From contig CAVTFE010000059.1 in NCBI GenBank assembly GCA_963733745.1, forward strand, positions 39,449-103,448: DNA of 64,000 bases, in the 5' to 3' direction. The position numbers were made by a program, and so were the translations under genes. The notes beneath the pieces were generated by a model. The model searched no databases and was not told where the DNA came from. It saw only the letters and a list, made by a program, of their open reading frames with translations. The stretch comes from an uncultured bacterium (GTDB lineage: Bacteria > Chloroflexota > Ktedonobacteria > Ktedonobacterales > JADMIN01). Positions 1 through 48,172 of this stretch are shown here, piece after piece; the stretch's first letter is position 1, and every line of letters begins with the position of its first letter.

Positions 1-422
1 AGCGCCTCGCGCACCGCGGCGTGCTCCACGATGCGCATCGCAGGATCGCTGGTCGCTGGCTCAGGGACGTTGGCGAGTGAGGTCGCCGATCGCTGGCGGC
101 CTTGCTCGGTCAGCGCAAGATTGGTCGCCACACGAAAGAGCCACATCTGCGGGCGTTCATAGGTGGTCACCTTCTCGAAGTTCCGCCAGGCGCGCAGGAA
201 GGTCTCTTGACACAAGTCATAGCCCGTCTGCTCATCACCGGTCATCCGCCAGAGATAGCTGAAGATCGCCCGCTGATGCTCTTGAAAAAACGCTTCAAAC
301 TCGTGTGAGGCGTTTGTCTCATCCGCCTGGCGAGCCGCCGAGAGGTCGCTCGCCCCCATACGCATGGCCAGGGCATCCAGCGGGATGCGCCACACTGGGT
401 GCGGCGCCCTCCACAGCGTCAT
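1..422 (-). CDS. ECF (sigma-70 family) RNA polymerase sigma factor, 5' part; runs off the window edge
   Basis: Manual translation from ATG at 422 (RBS GGAAGG): ...FEAFFQEHQRAIFSYLWRMTGDEQTGYDLCQETFLRAWRNF...WLFRVATNLA, a typical ECF region 2. Not in the ORF track because its stop is outside the window. Confidence 0.9.
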   Translation of the reverse strand, partial: MTLWRAPHPVWRIPLDALAMRMGASDLSAARQADETNASHEFEAFFQEHQRAIFSYLWRMTGDEQTGYDLCQETFLRAWRNFEKVTTYERPQMWLFRVATNLALTEQGRQRSATSLANVPEPATSDPAMRIVEHAAVREA

Positions 423-862
423 AAGCTACCTTCCATCTCATCGTGATCAGTGAGCCGCTTGATCACACAGGTAACACTAGGATGAGACGAAAAGGTAACA
501 ACGTCTCCACCACGTAGCACAGAGAGCGCGATACAGACTGAATCAGCGGATGCATAGGGTGCAGCAGTCCTTAAGCGCCATGAGCAAGGCCGCAACCGTA
601 CTGGTCCATGAATGCTCACCATCCTGCTGAGCTAATCGTGAGCGCTGAGGAGCGCCAACTCGACGTTGGCATACCGATGTAGTTCCACCGCAGCAGTGGA
701 ACAAACTGCTGTACCGTTCAGCGATAGCCTATCACTGAAGGCCGAGGTTGAGGCAACGAAGACACACCTGTGACCGAAGAGGTATCAGCTCTGTGCGCTT
801 GCTGCTGAGAAAGCCTCGCTTGCAAATGCAAACAGAATGCGTGTCGCATCTTTATTCATAAA

Positions 863-890
863 GGCCTGCTGCGATATATCGCAGCAGGCC
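863..890 (-). terminator. Perfect 28-bp palindrome, likely terminator of the excisionase-like gene
   Basis: GGCCTGCTGCGATA|TATCGCAGCAGGCC, followed by TTTAT on the minus strand, 25 bp past the stop at 916. Confidence 0.65.
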
Positions 891-915
891 GGCACAACCG
901 CAAGACCGACTGAGT

Positions 916-1113
916 CTAACTTCCATCTTCTGATGTGGTATTGCGCTCCCGCATGAATCTGTCTAGGGCCGAGCGCCGAATACGATACCCCGCTGGCCCT
1001 CCAAGGTTTATGGCCTCTAGTTCACGATTGCGAATCCACTTGCGCACCGTATCTGGATGCACAGCAAGTTCCTTTGCAACATCATCAACTGTGAGCAGAG
1101 GATCTTGCGACAT
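916..1113 (-). CDS. Excisionase-like helix-turn-helix protein (HTH_17/MerR-like), candidate recombination directionality factor
   Basis: MSQDPLLTVDDVAKELAVHPDTVRKWIRNRELEAI...YRIRRSALDRF; RBS GAGGGG before ATG 1113; divergent from the recombinase. Confidence 0.85.
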   Translation of the reverse strand: MSQDPLLTVDDVAKELAVHPDTVRKWIRNRELEAINLGGPAGYRIRRSALDRFMRERNTTSEDGS

Positions 1114-1267
1114 GGCGCTGCCCCTCGTTGCATAGTCAAGTTCGTCGTTGGTTGTCACTGTTTACTCATGTCTGCTGTTGATTGCGCCTATTGCAAAGTC
1201 TACCACGTCATTACCCCAAAGTCGATAGTCCTTAGCAACACTTCACCATCTTTAACATACACAGACC

Positions 1268-1296
1268 TTGACAGATCGTATCTAGCGTGTTATCTT
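1268..1296 (+). promoter_or_regulatory. Sigma70-type promoter facing the recombinase
   Basis: TTGACA (1268-1273), 17-nt spacer, TATCTT (1291-1296), with extended -10 TG. Confidence 0.7.
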
Positions 1297-1323
1297 CGTA
1301 ATTAGCGGGTCCGCCAGATTCGC

Positions 1324-1404
1324 AAAAAGGAAACGGCTCGAAGTGTTAGAGCACTTCGAGCCGTCGAACTCGCGCCGCTGGACAGCAAACACGAGGTCAC
1401 TTCC
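1324..1404 (-). ncRNA. Putative ~80-nt antisense RNA within the recombinase leader
   Basis: Minus-strand TTGCAA-N17-TATGAT promoter (1439-1411). It ends in the hairpin ACGGCTCGAAGTG/CACTTCGAGCCGT (1333-1364) followed by TTCCTTTTT. Confidence 0.5.
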
Positions 1405-1410
1405 GCCTCA

Positions 1411-1439
1411 ATCATACCGCGCATAGCTCGCATTTGCAA
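1411..1439 (-). promoter_or_regulatory. Sigma70-type antisense promoter
   Basis: TTGCAA (1439-1434), 17-nt spacer, TATGAT (1416-1411) on the minus strand. Confidence 0.55.
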
Positions 1440-1656
1440 GCTGCCGGCGGTAGTAGGGACGTCCAGCCGCGCTCATCAGACTGGAGCGCATTGTGGATCA
1501 GGAGTCGCAACCCAGTAACGACCCACCGCTTACAAGTTGTGACGCATCGTTTCCGTCAGCTGGCATTTGGTTCGGGCACGAGTCACTATTGGGCGTTTCT
1601 CGAAGCGTTGCTGATCGGGCTCAGCGCTTATGAAGCAGCTCATAGAGGGAGTTGCC

Positions 1657-3822
1657 ATGCGACGCAGCCGCTACCAGTCGCCTGAGGGTTCCCAATCAGA
1701 GCTTGATCAGCTTCCGCTCGACACCATCTGCACCGTGTTGGTGCGCCAAAGCAGCGTTAAGCAAACCGTGCAGAATACCTTCAGCGCAGAAGCAAACCCA
1801 AAGGATCTTGTGCGAGAAGCTCAGCGTCAGGGGTTCGCAGCTGAGCGCATCAAGGTGTTGGACTGGGACATGGGCATTGGCGCGTATAACACCACCATCG
1901 AGGATCGCCCAGCTCTCCATCACTGGCTCACCAAATTGCTGCCAGGCAAAGAAAGCCGCGTCGTCCTCGTCAGCCAGGAAGATCGGCTCTTCCGCGACCG
2001 CACCGAGATCCAGGTGAATCGGTTTATCGAGCTGGTGGCGCGCCAAGGTGGCTGGGTGATCTGTGGCATTGGTAACGCGCGCATTTACAACTTCCGGCGC
2101 GAGATGGACCGCGAATTGTTCCGCATGGCATGCAAGTATGGCCGCCAATACATCGAGTATCACATCAAAGGGAGGCTGCATCCGGCGATTCAGCGCACCG
2201 CCATGGCTGGCCGCTATTCTGGGGGCCCTGTGCCATGGGGCTACGTCGTCGATTATAACAGCCATAGCCCTTCCTACAAGCACTTCGTGCCCTATGAGCC
2301 CCATGCCAACCTCGTCACTGAGCATGTCTTCCAGGTGTTTGCTGCCATGCCATTCCCCTCAGTGGTACGAGGTCGCTCGTCACTGGGGCAGCCTCGGGTT
2401 GGTCTGGCCATTCTTTGGCCCAGACGATTGATCCGCGGCGTGTACGGCTGGTGGACGGTCATTGCACCCGCAACGAGGCGCGTGGGGGCTATGAGTTCCA
2501 CTTTCAACAGGCGCATCACATTCTGACTGATGTCGCCTACCTAGGCTGGCGCACGCGCTCCGGCCAGGTCGCCTGGGACGATGAACGTCAGAGCGCCACG
2601 CATCTGCCACCCGCCCCTCGTCGAGGAGGACGTCTTCTGGTGGTGCTATGATCAACTCCTCACCGAGCGTCCGCCCTGGGCTCCCCCGCGCCATACTCAG
2701 GTAGTTCAGACATTCCGCCCACGTCCTGCTCGTCGGCGTCACCCGGAGCGGATTGCATTCTTAGTTCCTGGCCGCATGCACTGTGCGCAACATGGCAACG
2801 TCATGGGCGTCATGGTCTATCCCGATGACAAACCCTATCTTCGTTGCCACGGCAATGATCGGCTGCGCCTCAAAGAGGACACGTGCTCAGCGATGCTTGC
2901 CACTTCCGTGGAGCATGCGGTATCGGAGACATTCCTTGCACAACTGACACTGGACGAGGAGGATGTGCGTAATCTGGCGCACCTTGCAGCGCAGCGGACG
3001 AGCGCTCAGGTTGATGCGAGGGATTCTCTCCAGCGCGAACTCGCCGAGCATCAGCAACGCTATGCACGCGCGAAACGACTGGCGCTTACGGCTGGCGACG
3101 AGGCGCTCGCGAATGATTTCTTTGCGGAGGCGCGCCAGACACGCAAGACCATCGCAGAACTTGAGCACCAACTGGCGACACAGGCTAAGCGCGCGGATGT
3201 GCCTCCTCCTGCGTGGGCGAAAGCGGAATGGATGGCCACGATTGCTGAACGCATCCGCTCCACCTTCCTTGAGTGGCCAAGGGCAGCGCAAGCACGAGTT
3301 CTCATGCTCGCGCTCCACGAAGGATTCCTGGGTCGGATCGATCGCCGGCGGACGGGGCTCCTGTTGCGCTGGCAAGGCGGCGCTGAATCGCGCCAAGAAC
3401 TCGTGAGTCGCGTCGGGTTGCTGGCTGCCTGGTCAAAAGAGGAAGAGCAGGCGCTTCGGACGTACTTTCACCAGTTGACCTGGGAGGCACTGCTTCGCAT
3501 GTTCCCATACCGGACGAAAGATGCGATCAAACGGGAGGCGTCGCGACTGGGGTTGCGGCGGCCACGATACGAGTTATCTGCAGCTGAGCCATACATTCTG
3601 GCGCAACCGGAGCCAGTCAACGTGATGGAGCCGTACGGATTCCCACTCGAATCCAGAATTCACGCGGCGGCAGGCAGTGTTGTGACGGCTGAGCTAAGCG
3701 TTGTTGCTTTGAGACACAGCACGCGCAACTGCTCCTGCGATTGGTATCCCAAGTCGAGCGCCAGTACGCTTGCGCCAGAACGTCATAGCGCTCCCGTTCA
3801 CCTACATTCATGCTGCCAGTGA
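1657..3822 (+). CDS. Large serine recombinase/integrase (frameshifted across ORFs 1630-2526, 2415-2651, 2581-3822)
   Basis: Resolvase motifs VRQSS (catalytic Ser), EDRPAL and SQEDRLFR; recombinase domain GGPVPWGY...HPPLVEED; Zn ribbon CAQHG...C...C; coiled coil. RBS GAGGGAG before ATG 1657. Confidence 0.88.
3711..3773 (-). mobile_element. att-like site: copy of an internal radC segment inside the recombinase 3' end
   Basis: 3711-3744 GAGACACAGCACGCGCAACTGCTCCTGCGATTGG matches 8164-8197 at 33/34. Weaker similarity continues to 3773 and encodes [21 protein letters not shown] versus Rad[22 protein letters not shown]. Confidence 0.8.
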
Positions 3823-4258
3823 AGTCAACGTCTCCGCGCTACCTGCTGTGACGACGCCTGTACGCGCAGCGTCAGTCTGCACGGGCACGTGAGGCGGCAA
3901 CCGACCGCCAGTGGACGTGGGACGACGCCCACCGATGACGAGATCTAGACTGTCGAGACGCCAAAGTGGCAAGCCTGCGCAACGTGAACACATTTGCGCC
4001 ACCAGGCGCCTTGAGGCATGCGCTCGTCCGTCGCAACACCTGACAGTGCAGGGGTTTGTTCCACCGCTGCAGTGCTGTGTGTCACACAGGACTTTGGCGC
4101 AGCGCTCATGGGCATCCGTTGTAGTTCTCCCCAAGCGGGAGGAGCATCTTTACGGCTGCCCGCTCGCATAGCGACGTGTAGTGCAACGGTGTAGACTGAC
4201 AAGCAAACCGCGCCACCGTAGGCGCCGGAGCCCACTGTCTGGGAGAGGATGCGGTTGT

Positions 4259-4575
4259 ATGGCGGTGAACCTGCTCGAACGCAAGCGCGAACTGACCGCG
4301 CTTGTCGCCTTGCTTGACGAGATCACTGCTGGACAGGGGCGGGTCGTTGTTATCAGCGACGAGGCTGGCACAAGGAAGACCCCCTCGTCGAACGCGTCGT
4401 CGCGCAATCACCTGCTGGCATGAGGGACCTACAGGGCGCGTGCGAAGCCCTCTTCACTCCACGCCCACTCTGCCCGCTCTATGACATCGCTCAGCAGACC
4501 ACATCGCCATTGCACGTCCTCCTTCAGGACGATGTGAACTGCGCGCTGCTCTTCTCTGCCCTCCTCGACGATCTC
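4259..4575 (+). pseudogene. Truncated N-terminus of an AAA-ATPase/LuxR (LAL-type) regulator
   Basis: MAVNLLERKRELTALVALLDEITAGQGRVVVISDEAGTRKT (decayed Walker A GEAGxGKT), then after a frameshift GACEALFTPRPLCPLYDIA; breaks off at the emfourin stop. Confidence 0.7.
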
Positions 4576-4867
4576 ATCTCCTCCTCACAAACGTGATGAG
4601 GGCTGCGAGCGCCGCGTCGGTCACCGGATCCGTCACCCGGATCGAATGGGACTGCTGCTCGCGCTCGACCGTGAGCGTGTAGGTCACGTAGTCAGCCGCT
4701 CCTTGCGGTGGGGTCGGTCCGTCGGCAGGCAAGTGAAAGAAGTCGCACTCAACAATCAACCGGTCTAGCTCGCGCTGCTGCTCCGGAGCGAGCTGTGCGC
4801 TGTCCACGACCAACGGCGGGCGTACCAGCCCGGCAAAGCCGCCCTCCTGATGTAAGACCACTCGCAT
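4574..4867 (-). CDS. Emfourin (M4in) protealysin inhibitor
   Basis: MRVVLHQEGGFAGL...FFHLP...GAADYVTYTLTVE...HSIRVTD; 97 aa; downstream of an M4 protease. Confidence 0.88.
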   Translation of the reverse strand: MRVVLHQEGGFAGLVRPPLVVDSAQLAPEQQRELDRLIVECDFFHLPADGPTPPQGAADYVTYTLTVEREQQSHSIRVTDPVTDAALAALITFVRRR

Positions 4868-5027
4868 GGTTGTTCCTGCTTTCTCGCATTGGTTTCTCGC
4901 ACTGGTTTCTCGCCCTCACTGCAGCACAGGCAGCCGACTCACCACGCCGCTCTCCACTTGCCCAGGCATGTTTCAAGCTTCACGTCCCGCCGCCCTGCTA
5001 GCGGCCTGCCCCTCACTGCGGGAGCCA

Positions 5028-6023
5028 TCAGAGCTTGCCGGGGACCAGCCCGAGAATCACGAGGATGGCGACGACCGCCCCTACGATCACGAGGATGGCG
5101 ACGACCACCACCACGATCTCAATGATGCGCGCGGTGGGGAGGCCCCCACCTGTGGGTGACACGGAGACTGTCGAGCGGATAGGGAAGGGATTGCCCGAGG
5201 TGGGGACGTTCAACTGGCCCCCTTGCGCTCTCGTCGCTAGCCGCCCCATGAAGTCCTGGTAGCCTGTCTGGGGGTCTTTGCCTGTGAGCTTCTGGTAGGA
5301 GTCGCCGAGGCTGGCGCCGCCGGTGGTGGCGATTTGGGTCCAGCTGAAGCCTAATTGGGTGTGCAGGTAGGAGAGGAAGAGGGCGCCACAGCCGTTGGCA
5401 TCCTCGTTCTGGTCTGTGGCGCTGTTGTCGTTGATGTAGTCCCGATGGCCGTTCCTCCACCAGCGCTGCTCCGTCGGCACAATGACGGAGGCCAGGGTCG
5501 CGTTGCGCTCGACGGCCAGGACGCGTGAGAGCGCTTCCCCATTGGTGTGGCCGCAGTCCCATCCATTGTCGATGGCGGCCTCAAACACCTCGACCACCTC
5601 GGCGACCACCAAGGTCGAGGCCTGAGTGGCAGGGACTGGCTCGATGTAGAGGTTGCTGCCAGCAGACGAGTAGTGGTAGGCGCCGCCCGCGTTGGGATCC
5701 ATCAGGACATACAGGGGTTGCGCAGTGCGCACGGTGGTCCGGTCGTCCCCGTCCTGCCCAGGAGGTAGGTCAAGGCCACCGAACCACACCTGTACAGCCG
5801 TGAAGTCGGCCTCGCACGCGGCCAGTACGCCCTGCGCCGCCACGTCACCCTCGACCATCCCATCAGAGTAGACGACGAAATGCGACGTTTGGCCGACGAC
5901 TGTTTCAGAGGTGAGGAGCTGACTGCTCTGGGCCAGGGTGTGCTGTTCCGCGCGGACCTTGCGCCCCGATGGGTTCGCGCGCAGGAACACACGGGCTCCT
6001 ACGCTGGGTCTGCCTGCCGTCAT
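5028..6023 (-). CDS. Uncharacterised zincin-like protein with C-terminal transmembrane anchor
   Basis: RBS GGAGGAGG before ATG 6023. GGAYH...LVVAEVVEVFEA...W..GHTNGEALSR resembles HExxH...W..EG spacing without the histidines. Hydrophobic C-terminus. Confidence 0.7.
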   Translation of the reverse strand: MTAGRPSVGARVFLRANPSGRKVRAEQHTLAQSSQLLTSETVVGQTSHFVVYSDGMVEGDVAAQGVLAACEADFTAVQVWFGGLDLPPGQDGDDRTTVRTAQPLYVLMDPNAGGAYHYSSAGSNLYIEPVPATQASTLVVAEVVEVFEAAIDNGWDCGHTNGEALSRVLAVERNATLASVIVPTEQRWWRNGHRDYINDNSATDQNEDANGCGALFLSYLHTQLGFSWTQIATTGGASLGDSYQKLTGKDPQTGYQDFMGRLATRAQGGQLNVPTSGNPFPIRSTVSVSPTGGGLPTARIIEIVVVVVAILVIVGAVVAILVILGLVPGKL

Positions 6024-6078
6024 CTGGGGACCTCCTCCTGTGCCAACAGGCGCGCGGCGCCATGCCAACACCCTCGCA

Positions 6079-7269
6079 TCACCGGCGGGGATGGCGTTGC
6101 GCGGTCACTCGTTCCCCGCTCACTCGCCAGGCCAGCCGCAAGGCTGAACGCGCGATCGTCAGCCGGTCGTCATTCCTGTCCGTGTCGGCACTGCCGACTT
6201 CGCTCCAGGCATCGGCGACCGCCTGGTGAATCTCGGGACTGCCCGGAAATAGCGTGGAGGCCGTGCGCGCGGTCAACGCCGCAAATTGCGCGAAGGTGCT
6301 GAGACGTCCCGCCTGCGGCAGCGCACTAAACCAGATCAACCCAGCCCGCTCCCAGGCGTACCCGCCCAGCTTGGTCGCCGCCAGGTAAAAAGCGCGATTG
6401 GGAATGCCAGAGTTAATGTGGACGCCTCCGTTGTCAAACTTCGTGTAGTCATAGTCGTCCATGTGGCCCGGTTGGGGGTCCTTGCCCATCAGGGGATTCC
6501 TGTACGCATCTCCCGGCTGTTTCATCCAGCGCAGCGCGGCGGGGTTGCTGGGCGCTGTATCCATCGCCTGCACCTGTGGAGTCAGCACCTCCGCCCCGAT
6601 CAGCCAATCCGCCTGATCGGCGGTTTGGCCCAGATGCTGCTGCTTGATCAGCGAGCCAAAGACATCGGAGATCGATTCGTTGAGGGCTCCGGATTGGTCT
6701 TGGTACACCAGGCCAGCCGTAAACTCGGTGACGCCGTGGGTTAGCTCATGGCCCACGACATCCAGCGAGCCAGCGAAGTTCTGGAAGATGTCTCCGCCAC
6801 CGTCACCAAAGACCATCTGCGTGCCATTCCAATAGGCATTGTCATAGCCATCGCCGTAGTGCACGGTGGCGACTAAGGGCATCCCGTGGTCATCGATGGA
6901 ACGCCACTGGTACTGGCTTAGAAAGAACGTATAGGTGGCGCGCAGATTGTCAAAGGCCGCGTCGGCGGCGGGATCGCCCGTGGCGGGGGTCTGGCCGACG
7001 GTCGGGGCGCTCGCCAGCAGCGTACCGGGAAGCTGCATCGTGTTCTGGTCGTCGTAAATCGTGCTCGTGACCTGCTGGACGTCGTCCACCGCGAGGGGCC
7101 GTGGTTGCACCGAGCGCAGCGCGCGGAGGGTGCGAATGGAGAAATCGCTGTTCAAGGTCAGGAGGGCCTGATTACTCTGGCCGGGCCGGCCATTCTTGAT
7201 CACTTCGTTCAAGATGTGCGGCGGAATGATCGTGCACCGTGTCCCGGTGCAGCACTGGTGCGACGCCAT
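6079..7269 (-). CDS. Protealysin-like M4 metalloprotease
   Basis: Short propeptide CTIIPPHIL; YDNAYWNGTQMVFGDG; HELTH; GALNES; DNGGVHINSGIPN. RBS AAGGAGGA before ATG 7269. True stop may be near 6160 if an indel is present. Confidence 0.93.
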   Translation of the reverse strand: MASHQCCTGTRCTIIPPHILNEVIKNGRPGQSNQALLTLNSDFSIRTLRALRSVQPRPLAVDDVQQVTSTIYDDQNTMQLPGTLLASAPTVGQTPATGDPAADAAFDNLRATYTFFLSQYQWRSIDDHGMPLVATVHYGDGYDNAYWNGTQMVFGDGGGDIFQNFAGSLDVVGHELTHGVTEFTAGLVYQDQSGALNESISDVFGSLIKQQHLGQTADQADWLIGAEVLTPQVQAMDTAPSNPAALRWMKQPGDAYRNPLMGKDPQPGHMDDYDYTKFDNGGVHINSGIPNRAFYLAATKLGGYAWERAGLIWFSALPQAGRLSTFAQFAALTARTASTLFPGSPEIHQAVADAWSEVGSADTDRNDDRLTIARSALRLAWRVSGERVTAQRHPRR

Positions 7270-7875
7270 GGGGTGGTCCTCCTTGTGGAACGGAGACGTG
7301 CTTGACCATGATCTCCGGATCACACACCGACCGTGCCTACTCGTGCATGCTCGTGCATGCTCCGGGCGAGCGCGGGGGGATGCACAGAGCTCCAGACGAG
7401 CCGTGTGCTACGGGCTCAGGCAACCAGAACCTATTATGTCACCTAGCCAGCTGATATGTCACTTGAAGCTGGTGGGCGACCACCTGGCGCTCTAGCCGTG
7501 AAGAATCTGGGCGAGACTCTTGAGCGCCTACGGTCCTGAAGGCACATCGTTCAACAGAGGCCATAGCAGATCGCCGACCGAGTACGCCGGCTTGAACTCT
7601 ACGGGCAGCACGCCTGTGGCGGAGCTCCCCAGCAGCATCTGCACCCGATGCTCAAGCTGTTTGGCGCGTGACAAGCGCTCGCCCATGCCGTGCTCGGCCA
7701 GTTACTACAGCGGTGTGTTCCACCGCTGCGCCAACTGCGCGCACCAGCCCCGGCATACATACCGACGCTGAAAGCGGTTGACACTGGCTTCTAGCAGTAA
7801 CGCCCTGAGCGGCCTTGACTGCCATGCACTGCGCGGCGCGACGGATGTAACGGACGACACGAGGATGAGCAACGC

Positions 7876-8587
7876 CTAGAAGCCGAGACCACGTTCTTTC
7901 AGGCTGACATAGCGCTGCTGCCCAAGGATGATGTGGTCCAGTAGTTCGATCTCCAGCGCCTCACCAGCGCGGCGCAACTGCTCCGTGGTGCGAATGTCCT
8001 CCGGCGAGGGTGTCGGGTCACCGGAGGGATGATTGTGGACGACAATGATGCTGGGACAGTTGCGACTGACGGCGGGGCGGAAGACCTCGGCGGCGCGCAC
8101 CACGCTGGCGTTCACCGTGCCCTGATAGACTGTGTGCTGCGCGATGACGTGGTTCTTGGTATCGAGACACAGCACGCGCAATTGCTCCTGCGATTGGAAG
8201 CCAATTTCGAGGGCCAGCAGTGTCGCCACATCGCCTGGACCAAGGATCTGCGGACGTTCGGTGGAATCGAGCAACGTCAGGCGGCGTCCGACCTCCAGCG
8301 CGGCCTTAAGGGTAATCGCCTTCGCGGACCCCAAGACCACGCTCAGCCCGTAGCACATCGAGATCCGCGCCGAGCAGCCCACCCAGCCCGCCATACTTGC
8401 GCAGCAGGCGCGACGATAGCTCGATCACGTTCTCGCCTTGGATGCCCACACGCAGGATGATCGCCAGCAATTCAGAATTCGTGAGCGAGGCGGCTCCGTA
8501 GCGCTCCAGCCGCTCGCGTGGCCGTTCTTCATTGGGGAGTTCACGCACGGTCGCATGGTAGCCAGTGTCGGATGTGCTTGTGACCAT
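7876..8587 (-). CDS. radC: RadC (JAB/MPN domain) protein, frameshifted near 8310-8390
   Basis: [28 protein letters not shown]...[14 protein letters not shown]...[14 protein letters not shown]...LLDHIILG. Confidence 0.93.
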
Positions 8588-30563: not shown

Positions 30564-31928
30564 CAGGCCACCTCCGTCACCTTCACGCTGACCTGCGGCT
30601 CGACGGCCTCGCGCGCGACGAGCGCCGGCCAGAGACCCAGCAGCGGACGCGGATCGGCGCCGACCGACTGACCAGAGACCGACATTCCCGCTGGACCCGA
30701 TAGCCCCAGCGCCATCGCCCGGCGCACGGCTGTCTTCAGCGTCTCCTGGTCGCTGGCGGTAAACATGACGCGCACGATCAGTTCGATGGGGTCGTCTGGC
30801 GCAGGAACGAGCGGGCCAAAGAGGCTCTCCTGCCCCATACGCTGGAACTCGACACGCGTGATCGGCAGCCCCTCCCAGGTGGCGGCGAGCATACCACGCA
30901 TCTGCTCCTCTTTGCGGTAGACCTCCGGCCAGCCCAACGTAAAGATCAGCTCGCGGCTATAGCCCTCCAGCCGCGCGACGTTGACTTTGAGCGTCTCGGT
31001 GCGCGGTGCGCCGGAAACTCCGCTGACGCGCACTCGGTCGGGGCCGTCGTCCTCCAGCCGCAGCGTCGTGATGTTCGCCACGACATCCGGCGTGATGTAC
31101 GCGCGCGGATCGTGCATCTCGTAGAGCAGTTGCTCCTTCACTGTCGCCTGCGAGACGCGCCCAGGCGTTCCAGGCGTCTTCGTCACGACGAAGCTGCCGT
31201 CGCTCTCGACCTCGGCAATGGGATAGCCCAGCCGCGCCAGATCGCTGGACGCGATCTCATCCAGCAGCGCCAGACTGTTGCCACCGACGACCTGCCCCGT
31301 GCATTCCAGCAGATGACCGCAGATGATCCCGCTCGCCAGCCTGTCCCAGTCATCCCACGCCCAACCATAATGATGAATCAGCGGCGCGAGATAGAGGCAC
31401 GGATCGGCCACACGCCCGGTGATGACGATATGCGCTCCCTGCTCCAGCGCCTCTACGATAGGCCTCGCGCCGAGATAGGCGTTGGCAGTAACGATGGGCG
31501 GGCCATCCAGTGTCAGCGGCGCGCCGGTCTCCATCTTCGCCAGCGTCTCGCCCGCAGCCAGCAAATCACCCAGCCACGCAAGGAGATCGTCGCCAGTCAC
31601 AGTCGCGATCTTCAGACCATGCAGCCCGTGGCGCTCCGCCGCCTTGCGCACGACCTCCGCCGCGCTGGTCGGGATTCAGCCCGCCGCCATTGGTGATCAG
31701 CGGAATCTTGCGCGCGAATGCCAGCGGCAGGATGCGCTCAGCGATGACCTCGATGTCGCGCGTGTAGCCCCGGTTCGGGTCGCGCATCTGGTCGCGCCGC
31801 AGAATCGCCAGCGTCAGCTCGGAGAGCGCCTCGAAGCAGACGACATCCACATGCCCGCCCTCGATCATGGGCAGCGCGCGTGTCACATCGTCGCCGTAGA
31901 AGCCTTCCGCCGAGCCAATACGCAGCAT
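30563..31928 (-). CDS. atuA: Acyclic terpene utilisation AtuA family (DUF1446), frameshifted
   Basis: RIGSAEGFYGD, TNGGGLNP, ANAYLG, GRVAD, GHLLEC, EQLLYE, YITPDV. Confidence 0.88.
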
Positions 31929-43147: not shown

Positions 43148-44578
43148 CTACTCTACGTTCGCCGTGACAGGCCGCTGCGTCGCCGTCTGCCCTGGCGCGG
43201 AGGCTGCCGGGCCGATCCAGACCGTCTGGACGTTGACGAACTCGCGGATGCCGACGAGCGATAGCTCGCGTCCGTAGCCACTGCGCTTCACTCCTCCAAA
43301 TGGCAGGCGTGGGTCGGAGGCCGTCATGCCGTTGATGAAGACGCCGCCGGACTCCAGCCGCCGCGCCAGCTCACGCGCACGGACGAGGTCGCGCGTCCAC
43401 AGGTTGCCGCCGAGGCCGAAGTCGAGTCGTTGGCCAGCTCGACGGCATGCTCGGCGTCGCGCGCGCGGATCACCGCCGCCGCCGGGCCAAACGTCTCCTC
43501 GCGGAAGACCGGCATCTCGTCCGTCACCTGCGTGAGAATCGTCGGCGTCGTAGAAATAGCCCTTGCCGCCAGGACCGGCGACCACTCCCCGCCGAGCGCG
43601 ACCTTCGCGCCCATCGCCACGGATTGACTGACCTGATCCGCCAGGGCCTCGCGCAAATCGCCGCGCGCCACCGGGCCGATCTGCGTCGCACGGTCCAGCG
43701 GGTCGCCCGATCTTCAGCTTCGCCGCTGCTTCGACGAACTTCTTCTCGAAGTCTTCGGCGACGCTCTCGACGACGATGAAGCGCTTGGCGGCGATGCAGC
43801 TCTGCCCCGTGTTCTGGAAGCGCGCCTTCACCGCCATCTGCGCCGCCGCGTCCAGATCGGCGTCCTCCAGCACGATGAAGGCGTCTGAGCCTCCTAGTTC
43901 CAGCACGGTCTTCTTGAGCGCATGTCCCGCCGCGCTGGCGACCGAAACGCCCGCCGCGTCGCTGCCAGTCAGCGTCACCGCTGCGATACGCCGGTCGGCG
44001 ATCAGCGCTTCCACCTCCGCGCCAGGCGCCACAACCGTGCGGAAAATGGTATCAGGCGCGCTATCGGCGAAGAGGCGCTCGATGTGCAGCGCGCAACGGG
44101 TCACATTCGAGGCGTGCTTGAGGACAACGGCGTTGCCCGCCATCAGCGCGGGAGCCGCCGCGCGGAGCGCCTGCCAGTAGGGAAAGTTCCACGGCATGAT
44201 CGCCAGCAGGACGCCCAATGGGCGATACGCGACGTAGCTCTCGGTCGCGGTAGAGGGCGCGGTCTCGTCTGCGAGGAAACGCTCCGCGCCCTCAGCGTAA
44301 TACTCGCAGACCCACGCGCATTTCTCGACCTCGGCCTCAGACTCAGTAATAGGCTTGCCCATCTCGCTCGTCGCGGCGCGCGCCAGCTCGTCCTTGCGCT
44401 CACGTAGCAGCGCCGCCACCTGGCGCAAAACGTCCGCGCGCTCGGCGAAGGAGCGGTCGCGCCAGCGTTTCTGCGCCGCGGCGACGGTCGTGAGAATCTC
44501 GTCGATCTGAGCGGCGCTATACGGCTCGAAGGTCTCGATGACCTCCTCGGTCGTGGGATTGATGGATTGTATCGTCAT
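43148..44578 (-). CDS. NAD(P)-dependent succinate-semialdehyde dehydrogenase (Sad/GabD1-like), frameshifted
   Basis: IMPWNFPYWQ, LKHAS, LELGGSD, GQSCIAAKR, EETFGP, PFGGVKRSGYGREL. Confidence 0.9.
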   Translation of the reverse strand: MTIQSINPTTEEVIETFEPYSAAQIDEILTTVAAAQKRWRDRSFAERADVLRQVAALLRERKDELARAATSEMGKPITESEAEVEKCAWVCEYYAEGAERFLADETAPSTATESYVAYRPLGVLLAIMPWNFPYWQALRAAAPALMAGNAVVLKHASNVTRCALHIERLFADSAPDTIFRTVVAPGAEVEALIADRRIAAVTLTGSDAAGVSVASAAGHALKKTVLELGGSDAFIVLEDADLDAAAQMAVKARFQNTGQSCIAAKRFIVVESVAEDFEKKFVEAAAKLKIGRPAGPCDADRPGGARRFARGPGGSGQSIRGDGREGRARRGVVAGPGGKGYFYDADDSHAGDGRDAGLPRGDVWPGGGGDPRARRRACRRAGQRLDFGLGGNLWTRDLVRARELARRLESGGVFINGMTASDPRLPFGGVKRSGYGRELSLVGIREFVNVQTVWIGPAASAPGQTATQRPVTANVE

Positions 44579-46382: not shown

Positions 46383-48020
46383 ATGCTCACAGTGCGGCAG
46401 TTGCTCGCGCTGGACCTCTTCGCGCAGAGCCGCCTCGTGGCCGGCGAGGGTGGACTTGACCGGCAGATCCACTGGGCGCATGTCGTGGACATCCCGCAGG
46501 CGCACGATTGGGTGCGGCGCGGCGAGTTGCTGCTGACGACCTTCTACGTCCTGCGCGACGACGAGGAAGCTCAGGCGGCGCTCTGCGCACAGCTGGCGGC
46601 GATGGGCCTCGCGGGGATGGTCGTGGCCACCGGCAAGTATGTCGATCACGTGCCGGATGCTGTGCTGGCGGTGGCGAACGCCGCGAATTTCCCGATTATC
46701 GAGCTGCCATGGGAGATACCATTCGAGGATGTGGTACGCGCCGTCTCCGAGCACAGCATCAACGACCAGTTCCAGCTTTTCAAGCAGTCGCTGGCGATCC
46801 ACCGCTCGCTGACGCGCGTCGTCCTCAATGGCGGCTCGCTCAAAGATGTCGCGCGCGAGTTGTGCTCCCTGCTGGCGCGGCCGGTCGAGATTGACGACCT
46901 CTCCTTCGGCGTGCTGGCAGAGGCGGCGCAGACCGGCGCGGAGCTGGACGATGTACGCCGCGCGGCGATCCGCGACGGGCGCAATCCGCCGCAACTGCTC
47001 GCCTGGCTGCGCGCGTCGGGCATCCTGCGCCGCGTCTCGGCCACAATGGCGCCGGAGCGGCTGGACGTGACGCCGGAAGGGCAAGCGCTGGGCATGACGA
47101 TGGCGCGCATCCTCGCTCCCATCGTCGTCGCGCGGCGTATCTACGGCTACGTCTGGATCATCGCAGGCGACCGCGAGCTAGAGCCGCTGGACGCTCACGC
47201 CATCGAGCATGCCGCCACCGTCGCCGCGCTGATTCTCTTCCGCGAGAAGACGGCCCACGCCGCCGACGAGCGCGCCGAGCGCAACCTGCTCAACCGGCTG
47301 CTCGAAGAGGGCGTCGCGCAGGAGAGCGGACTACGCGAGCAGATGGCGCGCTTCCGCCTGCGCCCGGACGCCCCCCATGCGGTGATCGCACTCGACCCCG
47401 GCGCGAACGACCTGCGCGTCGTCGAGTTGGTGGCGCGCAACGCGGCCCGCTACAAAGGGCTGAATACGGCGCTCGGCGAGCGAGCGGATCGCTGCATCGT
47501 GATCCTGGAGGCGGCGCGGCAGGAGCAGGTACAAACCTATTGCCAGCACCTCCTGGCGCAGGCGGGGACTCTGGACGACTCGCTACGCATCGGCGCGAGC
47601 GGGCTGGAGGGCGACATACGGCTGCTGCACCGCGCCTATGAACGGGCAATCGAGGCGCTGGAGGCCCTGCCCGCGCTTGGTGATGACCGTCGCATGGCCT
47701 CGTTCGAGGAGTTGGGACTGCTGCACTGGCTGCGCGCGCTGCCACAGGAATTGCTCAACGAGAATATCTATATTCAGCGGTTGCAACGACTGGCCGAGCA
47801 CGACCGGACGCACGGCAGCCAGCTCACCCAGACGCTCGAAACCTTCCTGGAGAACGACGGCAATGGCGTGCAGACCGCGCAGCAGCTCTACATCCACCGC
47901 CACACGCTCAAATACCGCCTCCAGCGTATCTACGATATCAGCGACCTCGATCTCGACGACTCGCTCTGCAAGCTCAACCTGCGTGCGGCGCTGCTGCTCT
48001 CGCGCATGCGCGCTCGCTAG
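46383..48020 (+). CDS. PucR-family transcriptional regulator
   Basis: N-terminal LVAGEGGLDRQIHWAHVVD...GELLLTT; C-terminal HTH LYIHRHTLKYRL. Confidence 0.93.
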   Translation: MLTVRQLLALDLFAQSRLVAGEGGLDRQIHWAHVVDIPQAHDWVRRGELLLTTFYVLRDDEEAQAALCAQLAAMGLAGMVVATGKYVDHVPDAVLAVANAANFPIIELPWEIPFEDVVRAVSEHSINDQFQLFKQSLAIHRSLTRVVLNGGSLKDVARELCSLLARPVEIDDLSFGVLAEAAQTGAELDDVRRAAIRDGRNPPQLLAWLRASGILRRVSATMAPERLDVTPEGQALGMTMARILAPIVVARRIYGYVWIIAGDRELEPLDAHAIEHAATVAALILFREKTAHAADERAERNLLNRLLEEGVAQESGLREQMARFRLRPDAPHAVIALDPGANDLRVVELVARNAARYKGLNTALGERADRCIVILEAARQEQVQTYCQHLLAQAGTLDDSLRIGASGLEGDIRLLHRAYERAIEALEALPALGDDRRMASFEELGLLHWLRALPQELLNENIYIQRLQRLAEHDRTHGSQLTQTLETFLENDGNGVQTAQQLYIHRHTLKYRLQRIYDISDLDLDDSLCKLNLRAALLLSRMRAR

Positions 48021-48172
48021 CCGGAGCGGATCGAGCTTATCCACTGTGGCGTATGGAGGATGGACAGTCTGAGCATGGCGCGCGCTTGAGTGAGAAGCGC
48101 CGCTGCTTCTATACTGATGGCGCTGGGAATCAGACACAACGACCATTGAGACCGACGTAAAGGAGCGCGCAG

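Follow-up and report, generated by a model that had tools for sequence, protein, structure and literature searches.

A probable serine-integrase element in a spare radC fragment beside a full-length radC in an uncultured Ktedonobacterales bacterium

The radC locus and its direct repeats

We analysed a 64,000-nucleotide stretch of DNA (the window, C59:39449-103448) from an uncultured Ktedonobacterales bacterium, near the left end of which the gene for a predicted large serine recombinase (LSR) lies close to two stretches of radC sequence. The window belongs to a metagenome-assembled genome of 97 contigs and 6,124,539 bp with a completeness of 68.65%. Throughout, the full-length radC is called copy (a), a 5'-truncated second radC is called copy (b), the DNA that interrupts (b) is called E1, and the segment between the two stretches of radC is called E2. 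The features on which the argument depends are listed below in window coordinates, except for E1, which extends beyond the window and is given in coordinates of contig C59.

C59:31821-43160, proposed integrative element E1, 11,340 bp with one GA counted; window 1-3710 is its right 3.7 kb and the left 7.6 kb lie outside
1657-3822 (+), predicted large serine recombinase gene of E1, with three 1-nt insertions near 2362-2367, 2424-2430 and 2598-2604
3687-3737, attR, with the GA crossover at 3711-3712; element sequence (P) forms its left arm and radC sequence (B') its right
3711-3764 (-), middle fragment of radC (b), from tblastn and a 47/54 nt match; (b) resumes beyond E1 at C59:31534-31820
7876-8587 (-), radC copy (a), full length, with UPF0758_N (Pfam 1.2e-22) and RadC JAB (1.1e-41) domains
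8139-8190, attB-like site of radC (a) that carries no insertion; its GA is at 8164-8165

Parts of the two radC copies form direct repeats (3711-3744 and 8164-8197) that are 33/34 identical and spaced 4,453 bp apart. A first-pass annotation, made from the sequence alone, had drawn attention to this pair, to the position of its left member inside the 3' end of the recombinase gene, and to the abrupt loss of identity on the recombinase side at a small inverted repeat. Sequence comparison and an assembly-wide search bore out each of these observations. The assembly contains no further copy of the 34-mer even when up to 3 mismatches are tolerated, and the match between the two is far above chance. 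The left copy falls within the open reading frame (ORF) 2581-3822 (+), the 3' part of the integrase gene. In register, the match stretches to 54 nt (47/54; 3711-3764 versus 8164-8217) and fades beyond, while no similarity between the two loci was found leftward of 3711. The inverted repeat (3705-3711 / 3715-3721, 6/7 paired) is a half-site likeness across the hybrid attR. Copy (a) had been described as uninterrupted, which strictly it is not, since a 1-nt frameshift near 8328-8331 splits 7876-8587 into two ORFs (8587-8306 and 8394-7876).

A partial radC divided by 11,340 bp of other DNA

Pieces of radC were located by tblastn of the radC C-terminal ORF against the whole assembly. Three places on C59 were found: 47327-48035, which is copy (a); 43159-43221 (amino acids (aa) 57-77), a middle fragment matching the query at 76% over 21 aa; and 31534-31836 (aa 72-172), a far-left fragment of 101 aa that begins 7.6 kb to the left of window base 1. 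The far-left fragment is 91% identical to copy (a) in aa and 85% identical in DNA (277/327 nt), with homology continuing for ~45 nt beyond the stop codon. The first-pass annotation had proposed looking for a radC 3' half left of the window, and this is where it lies (C59:31534-31820); the 18-mer expected with it is not repeated there, GA alone being shared. Its placement of the integrase outside the repeats therefore holds for the two copies in the window but not overall, given this third radC piece.

On the coordinates of copy (a), the middle and far-left fragments overlap by just 2 nt (TC, or GA on the plus strand), found at C59:31819-31820 and at 43159-43160, the latter being window 3711-3712. 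The two fragments are therefore one continuous partial radC, (b), split by the 11,340 bp of E1. This copy is a 5'-truncated spare of ~380 bp that runs from ~nt 371 of the gene to ~45 nt beyond the stop.

Joining the ends of E1 in silico rebuilt an attP whose 18-nt arms are complementary at 12/18 positions about the GA, compared with 0-7/18 when the centre was shifted by 1-6 nt either way. The two arms have inverted AGCGTTGT in common. The rebuilt (b) site differs from the site in copy (a) at 5/42 positions within ±20 nt of the GA. Thus, E1 is flanked by hybrid attL and attR sites with a 2-nt core in common, and its ends combine into a dyad-symmetric attP, as is characteristic of LSR elements.

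To this evidence we added contigs of four public soil or unlabelled sequencing runs, which were compared with the locus C59:30500-48999 (L036). In run X5, L036:1319 is joined directly to 12660 by a 345-nt contig that omits 11,340 bp; the joint has 2 ambiguous nt, and its flanks show 0 mismatches on one side and 1 on the other. This joint is the empty (b) site rather than copy (a), because its right side contains sequence specific to E2. From run X1, a 209-nt contig spans attR as assembled (L036:12582-12790), and a 282-nt contig spans the intact site of copy (a) (L036:16909-17190). E1 therefore occurs as a natural presence/absence polymorphism. A second X5 joint (L036:1253 to 17228), which may be the single-copy radC of a relative, was not used, as its shorter side has 29 letters and the intervening sequence is not known.

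Taken as a whole, the observations are very likely best explained by an 11,340-bp integrative element that sits at GA/TC in the radC codons ...RVLCL|DTKN, while E2 together with the 3' part of radC (a) may be the remnant of a second island. E1 would have integrated by attP x attB recombination through its divergent LSR, and would be excised by attL x attR recombination aided by the adjoining excisionase-family protein as recombination directionality factor (RDF); we infer both activities from sequence. E1 is probably still mobile.

The repeats had also been read as an unrecombined attP (left) and attB (right) in cis, between which the integrase would delete a 4,453-bp circle and truncate radC, a one-way switch like skin or the nifD element. 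What invites such a reading is that the repeats are direct, 33/34 identical, and adjoin the integrase gene. The junctions contradict it. Sequence leftward of 3711 and rightward of C59:31820 makes up the dyad-symmetric attP, and sequence rightward of 3712 and leftward of C59:31819 makes up continuous radC, which makes the repeat at 3711 the radC (B') arm of a hybrid site, attR, whose partner attL lies 11,340 bp leftward. Serine integrases pair attP with attB or attL with attR, not attR with attB, and do not need 34 nt of identity. The excision product seen in a public run is the empty E1 site, and no joint linking the 3711 and 8164 copies is listed among contigs of the four runs, although contigs may miss rare forms. 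In an excision element of the skin or nifD type, the recombinase would act on the repeats themselves, and a functional gene would be rebuilt on excision. Neither applies here, because 3711 is attR, 8164 is an empty attB-like site, and excision of E1 leaves a fragment without ~370 nt of its 5' end. We regard the deletion switch as scarcely credible.

A divergent recombinase family

The recombinase is poorly recognised by standard domain models. Pfam Resolvase matched the window pieces over profile positions 5-144/145 with 22.6 bits, under the cut-off of 23.3, and a Myb-like match was weak. The Pfam Recombinase and Zn_ribbon domains were undetected in the window pieces and in the relatives P0001, P0005, P0008, and P0009, and Pfam returned nothing convincing on the full-length relatives P0008 and P0009. 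With PHROGs, the N-terminal integrase piece matched integrase phrog_95 (E 1.1e-8). When the C-terminal ORF was used in an exhaustive HMMER search, 200 proteins passed E ≤ 1e-3, of which 14 also passed E ≤ 1e-30. The consensus of a 20-sequence family alignment retains R-Q-S and EDRLFRD, which we take to be catalytic motifs.

Fold was compared using the homologue P0008, a family member 36-59% identical to the window pieces, in place of the frameshifted window protein. Its AlphaFold model, built from the 20-sequence alignment, has a mean pLDDT (predicted local distance difference test) of 76.9, and a sequence search of P0008 against the PDB gave no match at E ≤ 0.01. By structure, the model matched the full-length serine-integrase/DNA complexes 9dxd, 9y66, 9rah (PhiC31), and 9iu2 (Bxb1) over 600-670 columns (E 1e-18 to 1e-14). 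It also matched the LI integrase C-terminal domain 4kis, with E-values of 1e-18 to 1e-6 across these complexes and 4kis, and the catalytic domains of TP901-1, Sin, and gamma-delta. TM-scores were low (0.15-0.38), as flexible multi-domain chains would give. The sub-threshold Pfam match, phrog_95, the motifs, and the model of P0008 all point to an N-terminal resolvase-type catalytic domain with a nucleophilic serine, and the same homologue model contains a Recombinase domain and a zinc ribbon with an embedded coiled coil. Judged by this model, the window recombinase is predicted to be a true yet divergent LSR. The model has in addition a C-terminal beta-sheet and a three-helix module (residues 555-632). 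The Myb-like stretch of the window protein is a repeat found in many unrelated proteins.

The 3' end of the gene bears the imprint of the insertion site. The last 36 codons of the integrase ORF are antisense radC, and homology to relatives stops near 3655. Homology within the family reaches to about residue 358 of the 413-aa ORF, ~18 codons short of the crossover. The ORF continues past the GA for 36 codons when E1 is integrated and for 28 in the reconstructed excised form.

Targets of the integrase clade

Antisense-radC tails were present in 4/13 aligned proteins, namely the window's own, P0001, P0006, and P0007. P0001, the nearest relative at 72% identity, shares its terminal antisense-radC tail with the window protein, and P0007 ends ...RQRTRNCSCG. 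In genome G282, which belongs to the same family but another genus, a 46%-identical homologue adjoins a radC fragment (aa 57-83), and a piece comprising aa 79-172 follows 16.7 kb onward. There was no radC alongside the other paralogues, of which two are in the window's genome, three more in G282, and one in G030. Comparison among relatives thus supports radC targeting as a probable property of this integrase clade.

Searching genome contigs with the family alignment gave a sole locus, L039 (a named Chloroflexia metagenome-assembled genome record), with a 47%-identical homologue. No related locus came from the alignment-based search of metagenome contigs or from a single-protein query of genome contigs. 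The L039 homologue ends at an apparent dprA/smf-like gene on the opposite strand (L039:11090-11500 (-)), judged by eye from its translation, which suggests that other family members may target other DNA-processing genes.

Serine recombinases are plentiful in the window's genome. The divergent lineage has two paralogues there, at C74:66150-67022 and C50:3034-4108, one of them also frameshifted, and canonical LSR-like genes are numerous, a canonical LSR of G282 having matched 14 of the contigs.

Frameshifts and assembly quality

Positions of the three shifts in the integrase gene were set by reading the window sequence against the family protein alignment. A contig of run X2 is without one base at L036:11316 (window 2367), within the first of them, and contigs of runs X1 and X3 are without one base at L036:15141/15142 (window 6192). 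No single-base insertions relative to the assembly are listed among the run contigs. Both radC (a) and malate synthase (L001:3380-5138) are divided between two overlapping ORFs, and the radC shift can be read as one extra base. Because contigs from other runs drop bases and several genes are split alike, we take the frameshifts in the integrase and radC to be probable assembly errors. Extra bases may also account in part for the low completeness of the genome (68.65% for 6.1 Mb).

The base dropped at 6192 lies ~113 nt before the stop of an M4 protease ORF in E2, and the true C-terminus of the protease may therefore differ, perhaps extending toward the ORF at 5028-6071.

Several 1-nt indel errors in a metagenome-assembled genome of such completeness lend some weight to the idea that the contig is chimeric across radC repeats and that the two-copy layout is unreal. 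Against this, independent contigs span attR (X1), the site of copy (a) (X1), and the empty (b) site beside E2 sequence (X5). Moreover, the copies are merely 85% identical, too far apart to collapse, and G282 has the same layout. An assembly artefact of this kind is very improbable.

Origin of the radC duplication

In DNA searches, radC (a) was 70-74% identical to the radC genes of relatives. Over the 95 codons that (a) and (b) have in common after the crossover, there are 39 synonymous and 5 non-synonymous changes, corresponding to a synonymous divergence (dS) of ~1.0 and a ratio of non-synonymous to synonymous divergence (dN/dS) of 0.024. No stop codon occurs within (b) over the compared codons. 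Through nearly all of the time since they parted, (a) and (b) therefore behaved as functional genes, and hence one of them probably came from another lineage.

Genome G282 offers a possible precedent. There, a canonical LSR (Resolvase, Recombinase, and Zn_ribbon_recom) adjoins a radC N-terminal fragment ending ...DVANLL. This fragment is followed by ~22 kb of inserted DNA that holds a PrimPol/AAA_25 gene and a complete divergent radC, 63-68% identical in DNA to all others. The native radC then resumes, within a few nt, at the point where fragment (b) of the window begins. The G282 fragments are taken to be the native gene because the radC nearest to them is that of G017 (79%), a genome of the same genus. 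Across G282:C12:87645-127168 (L037, L031, and L038), two different serine-integrase elements interrupt the native radC at points ~50 bp apart; the element at the upstream point also carries a Ser/Thr kinase, an acetate-transporter-like gene, and an acetyl-CoA synthetase.

By analogy, E2 together with the 3' part of radC (a) may be an integrase-less remnant of a second serine-integrase island. Such an island would have entered radC ~50 bp upstream of the E1 site, bringing its own radC. Its integrase would later have been lost, as could happen if the native 5' fragment recombined with the radC of the island. The first-pass annotation had mentioned an integrase-less cassette in a tandem radC island as its second choice. 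That idea fits better than the switch and is partly supported, although the source of the duplication is reached by inference.

Alternatively, where the origin of (b) alone is concerned, it could be a truncated paralogue left by segmental duplication or rearrangement, with E2 being ordinary chromosomal DNA. Consistent with this, E2 is without a recombinase or other mobility gene, its G+C (0.632) equals that of the genome (0.63), and (a) and (b) are closest to each other among the radC genes compared (84.7%). However, a dS of ~1, a dN/dS of 0.024, and the lack of a stop are not expected of an in-situ duplicate missing its 5' half, and the 5' border of (b) coincides with the serine-integrase crossover point seen in G282. 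We consider such a duplication unlikely, though by no means negligible.

Several observations weigh against the reading we prefer, in which E1 is an integrative element and E2 the remnant of a second island. Among the records of the four runs there is neither an attL junction nor an excised-circle (attP) junction, although contigs such as these may miss rare forms. The integrase is frameshifted three times here, and an independent contig contradicts the first shift only. Copy (a) is no less like the radC of relatives than is (b) (74-79% versus 72-77% nt), and by tblastx the radC flanks in seven relatives show no synteny with either side, so that neither comparison points to one copy as native. 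The second-island part of the reading also calls for an unobserved deletion, since E2 is without an integrase and is not followed on its right by an N-terminal piece of radC. Finally, the 33/34 block exceeds the 85% average identity of the radC copies, at which ~5 differences would be expected (Poisson p ~0.03 by our own estimate), an excess that the preferred reading does not account for.

Two wider searches bear on the same question. DNA searches in 31 genomes and tblastx of seven radC loci gave matches confined to radC itself. When the second LSR of G282 (LSR2), its PrimPol, and genes beside them were used as tblastn queries, nothing matching them lay close to radC (a) on C59.

We further offer a more speculative account, which we hold only tentatively and think somewhat doubtful. 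Two unrelated serine-integrase lineages may have specialised on radC sites ~50 bp apart, with upstream islands carrying their own radC and the truncated native copy serving as a harmless landing pad. The lineage invisible to Pfam, with its Myb-like module and tail-changing ORF, may then be a distinct LSR subfamily that targets DNA-processing genes (radC, and a dprA-like gene in L039). If true, the radC carried by islands at the upstream site leaves the host with a working copy.

Cargo of E1 and content of E2

Two further genes of E1 lie at least partly in the window:

3-422 (-), 5' part of an ECF (extracytoplasmic function) sigma-factor gene; the whole gene is L001:15275-15871 (Pfam Sigma70_r2/r4_2)
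916-1158 (-), excisionase-family helix-turn-helix gene (Pfam HTH_17, E 3.6e-14; TIGR01764 'excise', 49.1 bits versus a cut-off of 28.8; phrog_66 excisionase)

By its position, the protein of 916-1158 is a candidate RDF of E1. A perfect 14+14-nt palindrome (863-890), terminator-like, lies just downstream of its gene. Further left, E1 encodes an anti-sigma-like protein fused to a beta-propeller (NCBIfam anti-sigma match weak, below the cut-off) and a PQQ/BamB-like beta-propeller (Pfam PQQ_2). Most cargo ORFs received no family name from PHROGs, NCBIfam, or Pfam, and the same three sources revealed no phage or conjugation genes in E1. The G+C of E1 is 0.613, versus 0.63 for the genome.

The segment between the repeats contains the following:

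3765-7875, E2, with no integrase
4181-4596 (+), AAA_16-type regulator fragment (Pfam, weak)
4574-4867 (-), emfourin gene (Pfam)
5028-6071 (-), ORF without a family name from PHROGs, NCBIfam, or Pfam
6079-7323 (-), M4 thermolysin/protealysin-like protease (Pfam)
7565-7729, dispersed repeat, with copies elsewhere in the assembly

The emfourin gene lies near the protealysin-like protease, presumably as the known pairing of inhibitor and protease. The dispersed repeat has 19 further matches on 9 contigs (~60-165 nt, 68-83% identity). One is inside E1 (C59:37287-37451), and the others are on C2, C74, C61, C69, C78, C80, C25, and C92, with clusters of 6 on C2 and of 4 on C74, the latter a few kb from an integrase paralogue. 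Shorter motifs at 682-717 and 4043-4074 resemble this repeat.

Discussion

The locus is a well-delimited serine-integrase island, of a poorly annotated predicted lineage, in a spare radC fragment beside a full-length radC. It illustrates that, when a locus is only partly in view, attP/attB pairs can be mimicked by stacked islands and by spare copies borne on elements. Collections of integrases and att sites should benefit from so cleanly bounded an element, which supplies attL and attR, a rebuilt attP, and two natural variants of attB. Because standard domain models miss this LSR lineage, such islands stay unannotated.

Elements excised during development, such as skin in sigK, SPbeta in spsM, and the nifD element, interrupt a gene and carry a serine or tyrosine recombinase. 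E1 resembles them in that a recombinase element interrupts a gene. Unlike in those systems, its excision rebuilds only a 5'-truncated radC fragment while a full-length radC is always present, and the 4.45-kb segment is not bounded by a recombinase's own sites.

In myxophage Mx8, the integrase gene intP spans attP, and integration alters its 3' end. The integrase ORF of E1 likewise crosses the crossover, and predicted proteins of relatives also have antisense-radC tails. In E1, by contrast with intP, family homology ends ~18 codons before the crossover, and the swapped tail may lack function.

Insertion at radC has precedents. In the available portions of the reports, radC is the site of Tn554 and a hot spot at which 3' remnants are left (bioRxiv 10.1101/2020.09.30.320143), and it is among the sites of integrative and conjugative elements (ICEs) and integrative and mobilizable elements (IMEs) in Mesorhizobium (PMC8627217). 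In PMC9203015, radC figures just as a phage gene, and it is absent from the main text of PMC8407400. As far as these sources describe them, the radC hot-spot elements (Tn554 att554, the optrA element, and Mesorhizobium ICEs/IMEs) are like E1 in recurring in or beside radC and leaving 3' remnants, whereas they use other recombinases or transposases. Judging from titles and abstract openings, none of the papers matched in full-text searches on radC and serine integrases describes such an enzyme aimed at radC.

The closest likeness is to phiC31, Bxb1, A118/LI, TP901-1, and LSR-borne islands. As in those, the modelled E1 family has a catalytic domain, a recombinase domain, and a zinc ribbon with a coiled coil, and E1 itself has a 2-nt core, a dyad-symmetric attP, attP and attB sites that are little alike, and an integrase gene at the end of the element by the att site. 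It departs from them in several ways. Identity of P0008 to solved LSRs is 11-17%, Pfam Recombinase and Zn_ribbon_recom are silent, and the family has an extra C-terminal beta-sheet and three-helix Myb/SANT-like module. The cargo of E1 is regulatory (an ECF sigma factor) rather than made up of phage or conjugation genes.

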